IMG/VR virus record: IMGVR_UViG_3300037493_005727 | Coordinates: 133,091 to 190,250 of that record | DNA: 57,160 nucleotides | Reading direction: 5' to 3' (one strand) | From: a virus | In this document: positions 14,955 to 16,801 of the stretch, piece after piece | How positions within the stretch are numbered: position 1 is the first letter of the stretch | How the letters are laid out: each line of letters starts with the position of its first letter | Notes under the pieces: model-generated | Database searches by the model: none | What the model was told of the DNA's origin: nothing | The model's input: the letters and a program-made list of their open reading frames with translations, nothing else | Made by a program: the position numbers and the translations under genes

Positions 14955-15449
14955 ATGCCGGTAACCGCGACTCCAACAACCACGCTGGTCATCACCCAGG
15001 ACGACGTCCGCGGTTTCTTGCGCGACATCGCGGGGCAGATTCCGAACACCGGTTCGTACAACATCATGTACGATCTGCCGCAGTTCTCTGACGCGGAGCT
15101 TCAGCGAGCCATCAAGTTCACGGCTTCCCGGTTCAATGTGATGGCGCCGCCGTCGAATGACCCAGTAGACGGCATTAACTCTTGGATCATGTTGATTGGG
15201 GTCGCTGAGTTCCTTTCGATGAGTGAGGCGTTCCGGCAGACCCGCAACCAGGTCACGTACCAGGACGGCGACATTCAGCCTATCGGGCTCGACGACAAGC
15301 AGCAGCAGTACCTCGCCTTGGCGCAGATGTGCAAGGCGGAGTTCGAGGAGAAGGCGCGCAACTACAAGATCTCTCGCAACATGGAGTCGTGCTACGGTTC
15401 CCTGGGTTCTGGCTACCGCAACGTCTCGAGGTTCTTTCACTCATCATGA
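14955..15449 (+). CDS. hypothetical virion-module protein
   Basis: 164 aa, ATGA overlap with the next gene. Confidence 0.55.
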   Translation: MPVTATPTTTLVITQDDVRGFLRDIAGQIPNTGSYNIMYDLPQFSDAELQRAIKFTASRFNVMAPPSNDPVDGINSWIMLIGVAEFLSMSEAFRQTRNQVTYQDGDIQPIGLDDKQQQYLALAQMCKAEFEEKARNYKISRNMESCYGSLGSGYRNVSRFFHSS

Positions 15450-15925
15450 GTATGCACAAGGACAAGATCCCTGGTGGACTGGCTTCCGGGAAGTCCGAGG
15501 ATGCTTTTCCTGAGAAGAAGCTCGACGCCGGGACAAAGGTCGAGAAGGAACACACCTCGGAGGAGGAAGTCGCTGAAGAGATCGCGATGGACCACCTCAC
15601 CGAAGATCCGTCGTACTACCGGAAGCTGAAGAAGATCGAAAAGATGGCTTACCTGGCAGGACGCCGGGACGCATTCGCGAAGTTCGGTGGCGCGGCGTCC
15701 GCCGCTCCGGCGGGCGCGTCGTCCGTTCGGGACTCAGGATCGCCGGTAGCGACAACGCATCATCGAGACAGTATGCAGAACATCTCTCAGGGGTTCTCTG
15801 CCAACGCCGCTAAGGGACAAACGTCGAACTTCACGGACCCCGGATTCAGGAACCACACGCTGCAAGGTGGCCCTCCTACGAAGCCGTTCAAGTCCGACAC
15901 CTCAGGAGGCCTCAGTGACTCTTAA
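15446..15925 (+). CDS. hypothetical protein: small conserved phage module fused to a Y-x2-G-x3-A-x3-F-G motif region
   Basis: ATGA start inside track ORF 15329-15925. 'KVEKEHTSEEEVAEEIAMDHLTEDPSYYRKLKK' resembles a widespread small phage DUF (unverified). In-frame ATG 15644 begins 'MAYLAGRRDAFAKFGG'. Confidence 0.55.
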   Translation: MSMHKDKIPGGLASGKSEDAFPEKKLDAGTKVEKEHTSEEEVAEEIAMDHLTEDPSYYRKLKKIEKMAYLAGRRDAFAKFGGAASAAPAGASSVRDSGSPVATTHHRDSMQNISQGFSANAAKGQTSNFTDPGFRNHTLQGGPPTKPFKSDTSGGLSDS

Positions 15926-16541
15926 CGAAATGGCGTATCGCAGGGGCTCTCGAGACGCTCAAAACAAGTTCGCCGCGCTCGGTGCTGCTGGAGCTCCAGC
16001 CACTCCGTCGATGGCCGCTGGCGGGCTAGGCGCTGTTCCGCCGATCAGCACGACGGTTCCCGGGGCCTCCGCGGCAACGGCGAAGCCGGGCGCGCCGAAT
16101 CAGGCGCTCCCGACCTCCCCGGTTCTTGGGACGGGGGTTCCTGGAACGCCGACCGTCGCCGGTATGGGTAAGCCTGTGTCCGCGGGAGCAGCTATCTCTT
16201 CGCCGCCGGTCGCTGCTCCTGCGACGCCGACAACGAAAGCCGCCAGCGTTTTCGCCCCGGCAAAGGCCCCAAGCGCTGCGAAGATCCCGCGCACAACATC
16301 GACAGTCGGGAGCAACAACACCGTTGAGACCGCCAAGTCCGTTGCTCCGTCGTCTACAGCTTCGAGCTCCCCGGCGAGCGCTGGGACATCCACCTCTCCT
16401 GGGGGATCAGCGTCTGCGTCGGGCCCTGGGATGGGCGGCATCGTTCCTTCCACGGGACTGAGCCCGGCGGCGACACTTGCCAACGAGACGGCTTCGAACA
16501 CCCGGAACCAGGTCGTGTCCGTCTCAGGCGGTGGCAAGTGA
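15915..16541 (+). CDS. low-complexity Ala/Pro/Ser/Thr/Gly-rich protein with N-terminal AY-G motif
   Basis: GTG 15915 lies 5 nt after AGGAGG (alternative ATG 15930). N-terminus 'MAYRRGSRDAQNKFAALG'. Confidence 0.5.
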   Translation: MTLNEMAYRRGSRDAQNKFAALGAAGAPATPSMAAGGLGAVPPISTTVPGASAATAKPGAPNQALPTSPVLGTGVPGTPTVAGMGKPVSAGAAISSPPVAAPATPTTKAASVFAPAKAPSAAKIPRTTSTVGSNNTVETAKSVAPSSTASSSPASAGTSTSPGGSASASGPGMGGIVPSTGLSPAATLANETASNTRNQVVSVSGGGK

Positions 16542-16801
16542 ACAAGCTCGCCTACCAAAGCGGCTGTCTCGCTGCGGTGGCGGCGTTCAAGCTCGCGGAG
16601 TTCAACTTCGGCGTGACGGCGCGACCGGAGAAGAAAGACCGCATTTCGTCGGACAACGGGCGGCGAGCCTACGGGACGAATTTCACAGAACCTGGGCGGC
16701 AGAATCGATCAGTAGGGCAGGCCTTTGACGCGCTGAACTCTACGAAGCCCAGCGACTTCATCAACGCCGGTAACGAGGCGATGATCGGGACAATGGGCTA
16801 A
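16538..16801 (+). CDS. small protein with N-terminal AY-G motif
   Basis: GTGA overlap start; 'NKLAYQSGCLAAVAAFKLAEFNFG'. Confidence 0.5.
   Translation: MNKLAYQSGCLAAVAAFKLAEFNFGVTARPEKKDRISSDNGRRAYGTNFTEPGRQNRSVGQAFDALNSTKPSDFINAGNEAMIGTMG

Follow-up and report, generated by a model that had tools for sequence, protein, structure and literature searches.

A clade-specific N-terminal tag on dissimilar phage proteins: a candidate docking signal with a possible role in loading the virion

We analysed a stretch of 57,160 nucleotides from a virus (IMG/VR record IMGVR_UViG_3300037493_005727, positions 133,091 to 190,250), here called the window, which has a GC content of ~60% and forms part of a large phage genome. 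Eight of its proteins carry the same short peptide, in most cases at the N-terminus. This peptide is a clade-specific tag of the docking type, common to many proteins, and its reality is well established. Its sequence indicates that it probably acts as a specific docking helix for one common partner. The best explanation as a whole, to which we assign a probability of roughly 0.4, is that the helix would serve as a docking or sorting signal that recruits diverse proteins into the assembling virion, in the style of the phage T4 capsid-targeting sequence.

A tag recurring in eight proteins of the window

Each of the open reading frames (ORFs) and tag peptides that an earlier note on this DNA had listed was found where that note had placed it. 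We number the eight tags and their proteins F1 to F8 by position; all are on the + strand except F7. The F1 tag (AYLAGRRDAFAKFGG, 15647-15691) is internal to ORF 15446-15925, where it directly follows a DUF5661 domain and is preceded by an in-frame ATG at 15644. The remaining tags are N-terminal. F2 (AYRRGSRDAQNKFAA, 15933-15977) opens a low-complexity protein rich in Ala, Pro, Ser and Thr (15915-16541), the start of which is probably the GTG at 15915; this corrects the earlier note and makes the tag Tyr residue 8. F3 (AYQSGCLAAVAAFKL, 16550-16594) begins an 87-residue protein (16538-16801), F4 (AYAQGAQDALHKYAG, 21658-21702) a 91-residue protein with two Gly-rich hydrophobic segments (21646-21921), and F5 (AYQLGYLDAALDFGL, 27913-27957) a 417-residue protein (27901-29154). 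A degenerate copy that has lost the Tyr, F6 (AKAAGEAAALSSFGL, 29166-29210), stands at the start of a 67-residue protein (29151-29354). F7 (FYFAGKTAAAFHYGL, 36782-36826, - strand) is the N-terminus of a P-loop protein (36146-36829), and F8 (FYRLGQHHALAALGL, 46155-46199) that of an orphan protein with a weak kinase-like catalytic region (46152-46997).

Across the six frames of the window, the pattern [AF]Y..G...A matches only seven times, in F1 to F5, F7 and F8. The earlier note had described an identical register in all eight proteins; this is so in seven, and F6 (LAKAAGEAAALSSFGL) has K where the others have Y or F. Orthologs of F6 in the relatives L001-L004 keep G-x3-A-x3-F-G-[LV], and because the L004 ortholog carries the canonical motif, MQDLYKLGSADAAKTFGV (DLYKLGSADAAKTFGV), we regard F6 as a decayed true member.

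Residues were permuted within each of the 83 ORFs 5000 times. The core pattern was observed eight times anywhere in the proteins, against 1.40 expected from the shuffles (P = 0.0004), and six times within the first eight residues, against 0.042 expected, with 0 of 5000 shuffles reaching six. The pattern [AF]YxxGxxxA was observed seven times against 0.60 expected, a count that no shuffle reached. Because the pattern had been defined after seeing the data, leave-group-out position-specific scoring matrices (PSSMs) were also run, in which families were weighted equally, the adjacent F1-F3 and F5-F6 were each removed together, and 69,186 six-frame positions served as background. When left out, F1, F2, F4, F5, F7 and F8 each scored above the entire background; F3 was outscored by one background position and F6 by nine. 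HMMER with bias correction placed F1, F2, F4 and F5 clearly and F3 marginally above background but did not separate F6, F7 and F8 from it, and these three are therefore the least typical tags. The earlier note had raised Ala/Gly composition as a possible source of the pattern; the shuffles and the leave-group-out PSSMs indicate that composition does not account for the motif, which is real, beyond chance and N-terminal.

An origin in chance, in an Ala/Gly compositional artefact or in residual similarity between tandem paralogs without a common function is barely credible. The proteome contains 10.9% Ala and 8.3% Gly, and the adjacent F1-F3, with a second mini-motif in common, may be paralogs; however, the shuffles never reached the N-terminal count, the PSSMs recover left-out families even with F1-F3 removed together, the motif is kept across relatives, and the bodies of F4, F5, F7, F8 and the further tagged family F9 are unrelated. 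The earlier note's description of the proteins as otherwise unrelated is nearly right, but F2, F3 and F5 share a C-terminal [AG]-N-E-[AST], and F1 and F3 share NFT[ED]PG. This last motif extends to NFT[ED]PG.[RQ]N, at 15785-15823 in F1 and 16673-16711 in F3 (TSNFTDPGFRNHT and GTNFTEPGRQNRS, respectively). It is the only hhalign match beyond the tag among F1-F3, amounts to 13 columns (E = 0.07), and hints that these adjacent genes are old tandem paralogs. A DNA repeat or a common translation-initiation region was rejected as the source of the tag: the codons and the upstream DNA differ among the copies, so conservation acts at the protein level.

The tag has the consensus (M/L)-A-Y-x-x-G-x-x-(D/A)-A-φ-x-K-(F/Y)-(G/A)-φ, with the Tyr at residues 3-8. 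Counted over 32 instances in 13 families, and with the Tyr as position 0, positions outside the search pattern are conserved as well: Ala at -1 in 24 of 32, Asp or Ala at +6 in 27, Lys at +10 in 16, and Gly or Ala at +12 in 21. On a helical wheel A-1, Y0, G3, D6, A7, K10 and F11 fall within ~140 degrees, making one face over four turns, the centre of which is G-x3-A flanked by the two aromatic residues. This is a small-x3-small arrangement; the search pattern itself fixes G3 and A7, but no ortholog departs from them, nor does any of 22 homologs of the P-loop protein. AlphaFold2 (AF2) predicts residues 1-32 of F7 as one long helix and residues 2-22 of F8 as a helix, both at low confidence and without packing against the core. 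Past the tag, F1, F2 and the further family Fz have a low-complexity Ala/Pro/Ser linker, and F4, F5, F7 and the further families F9 and Fy have glycine-zipper-like segments.

The hydrophobic moment of the tag ranges from 0.07 to 0.54, its mean Eisenberg hydrophobicity from -0.57 to 0.40 and its net charge from -2 to +3. A Sec, Tat or lipoprotein signal peptide was rejected, as hydrophobicity and charge do not fit and F1, F2, F3, F6 and F8 have no segment with a Kyte-Doolittle value >= 1.6. A membrane-targeting amphipathic helix of the MinD/FtsA type was also rejected, in view of the low moment, the variable charge, the invariant Y, G and A and the nearly invariant F/Y. The narrow, residue-specific face, with small Gly and Ala between aromatics, therefore has the look of a specific docking surface, and not that of a membrane helix or signal peptide.

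Conservation, distribution and one tag per polypeptide

Every relative found (60-89% identity, GC 52-62%) has the tag at the same N-termini. Conservation in orthologs, which the earlier note had proposed as a check, is borne out for F1-F5, whose orthologs in L001-L005 and L025 keep the N-terminal Y, G, A and F/Y; the relatives that keep these tags include one genome at 52% GC. Conservation in the tag equals or exceeds that in the remainder of each protein, with a mean pairwise identity of 0.61-0.78 in the tag against 0.37-0.68 downstream. In F2 orthologs the tag and the C-terminus are kept and the middle is variable (0.67 in the tag against 0.37 downstream). The F5 protein combines glycine-zipper segments, a variable middle and a conserved C-terminal domain (0.78 against 0.51).

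The window has at least eight tagged families and the clade at least 12, with at least 4-5 further families lying outside the window. One of these is a ~150-residue protein encoded upstream of the protease gene in the same genome (MRDLSHRAGVTAALRDFAV), the L021 ortholog of which is canonical (MRDWAYIAGASNALRDFEA). Further tagged proteins were found in L016 (MIDQIYYQAGVKEAHAMFKV), L017 (MIKEAAYNEGYRAAWGVFFK) and L011 (NYYDLGVNDAFTKFAIL and MDFYAAGAREARETFIK), and a Pfam search of the further tagged proteins gave no domain match. The tag is modular: it occurs on the orphan gene F8, and the gene that takes the corresponding place in the relative L011 (position 5508) carries it without being an ortholog.

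Back-translated MAYxxGxxDAxxK[FY] matched three contigs only in IMG/VR, all of this clade. A profile of the F1 core searched against 1.84 billion representative proteins returned seven clusters only and no new fusion partner, and the N-terminal tag was not found in the examined late regions of Salmonella phage Arash and Vibrio phage D69. The tag is thus specific to the clade. No model in Pfam, PHROGs or NCBIfam covers it, the matches being to DUF5661 in F1, weakly to AAA_18 in F7 and weakly to kinases in F8, and no description of it was found in the literature.

Split and fused genes provide a view of how many tags a polypeptide carries. In L002 (7411-8100) a split has left F2 as two ORFs; the second of these starts with an F3-like tag of its own, MNKLAYRSGMAAAMAVF, that the unsplit F2 lacks at the matching position. 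In L004 (7655-8620) F2 and F3 are fused into a 321-residue ORF that keeps the N-terminal tag and the F3 C-terminus, the internal F3 tag having decayed to VAKLAGIADRDCLSGHLL. The F1 module is usually a standalone protein of 94-96 residues starting MNxxAYxxG (~30 clusters); it is fused behind DUF5661 in 10 clusters (about one quarter, the window included) and behind InPase (PF18823) in one. In both kinds of fusion the internal tag is intact and is the sole tag on the polypeptide. Each polypeptide thus seems to need exactly one tag, which is a prediction of a sorting or docking signal and would not be predicted by a structural domain or a relic of paralogy. The proteins examined for these fusions comprised P0002-P0011, P0036 and P0058; outside the F1 fusions, DUF5661 is joined to ART-PolyVal in P0058, and we suggest that DUF5661 may be a domain of the packaged-effector type. 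The possibility that the motif is part of DUF5661 itself was rejected, since ~55 other DUF5661 proteins lack the motif and most F1 homologs lack DUF5661.

Candidate functions of the tag

As an N-terminal peptide common to proteins with no other likeness, the tag bears the hallmark of a targeting or docking peptide. In the reading we favour, recruitment to the virion, the helix face with G-x3-A between aromatics would fit closely to a groove or helix on a single shared partner, and would thereby bring diverse proteins to the prohead core or another internal site of the assembling virion. The tagged proteins would then travel in the particle and would probably be ejected into the host, the tag apparently staying on, unlike the T4 capsid-targeting sequence. 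We infer the helical conformation, the binding to a single partner, the incorporation and the ejection; incorporation of the tagged proteins into virions falls somewhat short of an even chance. The earlier note had also proposed virion targeting. A real and conserved N-terminal tag on proteins otherwise unlike, in a late-gene setting, is in keeping with that part of the proposal; the adjacency to a protease is inaccurate, and the cleavage signal is not supported.

A virion destination is suggested because six of the eight tagged genes, rather than the five counted in the earlier note, lie in the late structural operon together with capsid, protease-like and spike-like genes. This + strand block runs from 1 to ~29,350. 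It contains the major capsid protein gene (4468-5376, +; 37% identity over 95% of the length to the annotated Arash major capsid protein), a prohead-protease-like gene (372-2369, +), an Ala/Glu/Lys-rich scaffold-like gene adjoining the latter (2425-3009), a 931-residue ORF homologous to the Arash 'structural protein' gp236 (18417-21212), and a gene whose spike-like product weakly matches the gp5 C-terminal domain. Residues 110-205 of the protease-like protein match phrog_18299, 'head maturation protease' (E = 3.8e-10), and searches of Pfam, NCBIfam and PDB gave no sequence match to it. Its gene is 13-27 kb distant from the six tagged genes of this block, not next to them as the earlier note had it. 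F4 lies two genes downstream of the 931-residue ORF. A relative with a more compact arrangement has, in this order, the protease, scaffold-like and capsid genes, three small genes, F1, F2 and F3, two genes, the gp236-like large protein, one gene, F4, one gene and the spike-like gene. The same destination is suggested because the F1 fusion domains, InPase and DUF5661, resemble predicted packaged effectors, and because the tagged proteins are small, disordered or Gly-rich and partly variable or orphan, like the internal proteins of T4.

Several findings weigh against recruitment to the virion. A protease-type site after the tag, as in T4, is not conserved in the ortholog alignments. The glycine-zipper or hydrophobic segments of F4, F5, F7, F9 and the position-5508 protein of L011 fit a membrane complex of the infected cell equally well. 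F7 sits on the opposite strand among early/middle genes, inside a tRNA cluster, and the claim that enzymes are packaged leans on the two least typical tags, those of F7 and F8. The tag helix is predicted at a predicted local distance difference test score (pLDDT) of 33-44 only. The cultured relatives, tag-free in the late regions examined, offer no transferable function. The Arash virion proteome comprises 116 proteins including ribonucleotide reductase, which makes the 'structural' labels from Arash weak.

The tag might direct proteins to a membrane complex of the infected cell rather than to the virion, by docking on a membrane-embedded phage or host partner or through the proteins' own glycine-zipper helices, in entry or exclusion, lysis control or an assembly platform. 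We consider this unlikely, though not negligible. G-x3-A is a classic packing motif of transmembrane helices, the Gly-rich hydrophobic segments of the five proteins just named point the same way (two reach a Kyte-Doolittle value of 1.6), and the F7 tag runs straight into GLGAVAGGLGGIALQMLL, with a similar helix at the end of the protein. However, F1, F2, F3, F6 and F8 have no hydrophobic segment, and the tag itself is neither a hydrophobic nor a cationic amphipathic helix. Known phage ejection proteins also bear membrane-active segments, so the membrane evidence does not separate this explanation from recruitment to the virion. A small-x3-small face beside aromatics is also typical of self-associating helices, and the tags might instead bind each other in a hetero-oligomeric bundle, forming one multi-protein body that is packaged or not. 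The strong likeness of the tags and the clustering of their genes (F1-F3 adjacent, F5-F6 adjacent) would fit such a body; but it leaves the loss of the second tag in the fused L004 protein unexplained, as a bundle-former could keep both. We rate self-association as rather unlikely, and it overlaps recruitment to the virion rather than excluding it.

Recruitment of a chaperone or other host factor, for example DnaK through the phage J-domain protein or GroEL, to fold or stabilise the disordered, Gly-rich proteins is highly unlikely. A J-domain protein is encoded in the window (41795-42694), many tagged proteins are of low complexity, and the N-terminus of the T4 head protein directs proteins to GroEL, according to a paper cited in PMC10052503; chaperone-binding segments, however, are usually degenerate, whereas the tag has an invariant Y, G and A in helical register. 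The second reading of the earlier note, in which the tag is a prohead-protease recognition or propeptide signal and is cleaved off, is very unlikely as well. It is favoured by the presence of the protease-like gene, by x-x-E shortly past the tag in F3 and F8 (LAE and GLE), and by the T4 capsid-targeting sequence, which permits proteolytic processing of targeted proteins according to the title of a paper cited in PMC9024508. Against it, neither (A/S/G)-x-E nor (L/I)-x-E is conserved at a fixed distance past the tag across families, F1 and F2 contain no Glu over dozens of residues past it, and shared candidate protease-type sites sit at C-termini instead.

These C-terminal sites have the form [AG]-N-E-[AST], of which the 83 ORFs contain five instances in all. 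Three of these are close to the C-termini of F2, F3 and F5, at a distance of 10-20 residues: ANET in F2 (16479-16490, +), 20 residues before the end; GNEA in F3 (16769-16780, +), 10 residues before the end; and ANES in F5 (29104-29115, +), 16 residues before the end. All three are kept in orthologs, and the C-terminal ends of F2 and F5 are also alike (VSVSGGGK and VSRGHGDA). The giant-phage prohead protease gp245 has the cleavage motif A/S/G-x-E, with Ser preferred at P1' (PMC10052503); [AG]-N-E-[AST] fits this motif, so C-terminal processing is possible. If the protease here has a specificity like that of gp245, F2, F3 and F5 might be trimmed C-terminally with the N-terminal tag retained, which we note as a lead.

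A conserved C-terminal segment of the scaffold-like protein, DSYVQGYNDTVETI (2893-2946), preceded by AAQLGYEKAKADL, is tag-like, with Y, G and D and then T/I in place of A/F. Several leave-out PSSMs ranked it first among the background hits, but it came only fourth in a scan of the real proteins with the full PSSM, at 8.0 bits against >=28.8 for true tags, and is a lead, not evidence. A near-motif at the protease C-terminus, AYGGIRHALGKFAG / LGAYGGIRHALGKFAGYV (2217-2270), which reads GxxxALxKFAG and is one residue short between Y and G, was rejected and not counted; chance alone would give about one such hit, and the segment is kept in most relatives but not in L017.

A wider form of recruitment to the virion, which we regard as decidedly speculative, is a general modular cargo-loading system in which one ~16-residue helix would be necessary and sufficient for capsid loading of at least a dozen unrelated proteins. 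The cargo would include membrane-active ejection proteins, a P-loop nucleoside triphosphatase, a kinase-like protein and the InPase and DUF5661 fusions, and the helix would bind at a single site on the scaffold or inside the capsid, possibly as a mimic of a helix in the scaffold-like protein. Accessory genes would turn into injectable effectors by gaining a tag; such a system would be wider than the T4 sequence, and its tag would not be removed. If true, this would be a phage counterpart of encapsulin cargo loading.

The cargo peptides of encapsulins and microcompartments are short terminal peptides or amphipathic helices on linkers, which dock unrelated enzymes to the shell interior, and encapsulin shells have the HK97 capsid fold. 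The tag also precedes low-complexity linkers and also occurs on candidate enzymes (F7 and F8), but in other organisms and with another consensus. Small-x3-small geometry (GxxxG/GxxxA) is used for close helix-helix contacts. The tag shows the same feature in its invariant G+3 and A+7, which lie on one face flanked by Y0 and F11; the geometry is a generic device and not a family, whereas the tag adds the conserved D6 and K10 and a fixed N-terminal location. We know of no sequence resemblance between the tag and the T4 capsid-targeting sequence.

The likeness to T4 is one of organisation. The T4 internal proteins (IPI-III) are diverse and fast-evolving, with only the capsid-targeting sequence, a short N-terminal peptide, in common; it sends them into the prohead, and they are then carried in the head and injected (PMC3012670, PMC9024508). 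The tag here is likewise found once per polypeptide on unrelated, partly orphan proteins. The T4 peptide is cut off at the prohead-protease site with which it ends; no site of this kind lies past the tag here, and the tag is retained even when internal, after DUF5661 or InPase, these F1 fusions being the exception to the N-terminal rule. The function of the T4 peptide is established, whereas we infer that of the tag from its sequence. In phage P1, the first 30 residues of DarB carry a reporter into the capsid (PMC9024508). This is again an N-terminal segment acting as a packaging signal, but on a single protein, as against at least 8-12 families here. A comparison can also be made with polyvalent or MuF-type effectors (Iyer et al. 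2017, PMC5512222), whose domains are predicted to be packaged in virions and delivered to the host; InPase of the type fused to F1 occurs mainly in phage polyvalent proteins that are likely packaged in virions (PMC5512222). The F1-InPase fusion, the occurrence of DUF5661 with ART-PolyVal and the position of the tagged genes among late virion genes recall these effectors. Polyvalent proteins are giant multidomain polypeptides, whereas the tagged proteins are small and have no more than one globular domain, and no MuF, portal or processing-peptidase domain was found in the tagged proteins scanned.

Experimentally defined signals for the packaging of phage proteins are few, the T4 capsid-targeting sequence and the P1 DarB N-terminus being those found in the literature. 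If recruitment to the virion is true, the packaged and ejected proteome of a whole uncultured clade would become predictable from sequence alone; the tag would reveal the route by which accessory genes come to serve as injected effectors, and foreign proteins could be loaded into capsids by means of a compact peptide. Should the tag lead elsewhere than to the virion, one docking helix organising more than 10 unrelated proteins would still point to an unrecognised hub in the infection cycle of these ~190-kb phages. The signature of one tag per polypeptide, as read from split and fusion events, is searchable in other phage groups.

Tagged candidate enzymes and genomic setting

F7 is a genuine P-loop protein, in agreement with the earlier note. 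Its Walker A motif GLPRTGKS is conserved, with G83 and K84 invariant, and AF2 models a core with a P-loop fold at a pLDDT of up to 93. The best Foldseek matches, to YjeE/TsaE and shikimate kinase, reach only E >= 0.01, and the Pfam match to AAA_18 (E = 2.6e-4) is below the cut-off. Gly-rich hydrophobic helices lie at both ends of the protein. Its 22 homologs, full-length and 56-89% identical, all keep MFYxAGKxAAAxHYGL. Five tRNA genes (Ile, one undetermined, Gln, Leu and Thr) lie on both sides of the F7 gene, at 35994-36146 (+) and 36908-37137 (-). The three on the minus strand are directly upstream of it, so they may be co-transcribed with it.

The sole homolog of the F8 protein is a 98% identical twin. 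NCBIfam Ser/Thr kinase models match residues 175-234 (E = 1e-3), but the scores of 18 and 15 bits are far below the respective cut-offs (490 and 372); there was no Pfam match at E <= 0.1 and no sequence match in PDB. The single-sequence AF2 model is unusable (pLDDT 38). By eye, the motifs GAGVEGS ... ATK ... HDTNKRDN ... DFS can be read as GxGxxG, Lys, HD..N and DFS. A peptide-pattern search of IMG/VR found no orthologs of either enzyme gene; the F7 family was later recovered by protein search. The F7 and F8 tags form a sub-type, MFY..G...A....GL. The N-terminus of the ORF at 47395-47727 (-), MRYALGWLAGFLYGQ, bears a loose likeness to this sub-type (Y, G and a small residue); it is out of register and does not score.

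The clade is an uncultured group of ~170-190-kb phages that are distant kin of Salmonella phage Arash. Relatives in IMG/VR are contigs of 168-189 kb, which share 60-76% identity in the 931-residue ORF. The only cultured relatives are very distant, namely Arash and the Vibrio phages D69, D181 and D148, with 30-37% identity in the 931-residue ORF and in ORF 4468-5376, and megablast of the window against 50,697 phage records gave no match. One window protein is 100% identical to a protein of a metagenomic contig, and the left end of the window is also present on a Logan contig from SRR12667201.

Within the late block, the region 8583-11720 holds a cluster of paralogs. ORFs 8583-9311 and 9324-10952 have a common C-terminal domain of ~120 residues (50% identity), and ORFs 9324-10952 and 10971-11720 a common N-terminal domain of ~65 residues (44-46% identity). 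ORF 9324-10952 matches many PHROGs labelled head decoration or tail fibre, with E values down to 4e-48, and the relative L025 has other genes in place of the whole block. In the same genome, ~7.7-9.5 kb upstream of window position 1 (L023, 119-1918), a 599-residue protein matches RNA polymerase Rpb1 domain 5. The gene for this beta-prime-like subunit shares the strand of the head genes and lies just upstream of them; it is followed by an uncalled ORF of ~150 residues with a decayed tag. Other recognisable genes in the window are those for the J-domain protein (- strand; DnaJ, E = 6.4e-7), a calcineurin-like metallophosphoesterase (30036-30776, -), an AAA_33 P-loop kinase-like protein (45103-45672, -) and a zinc-ribbon protein (27624-27884, +), the last directly upstream of F5.

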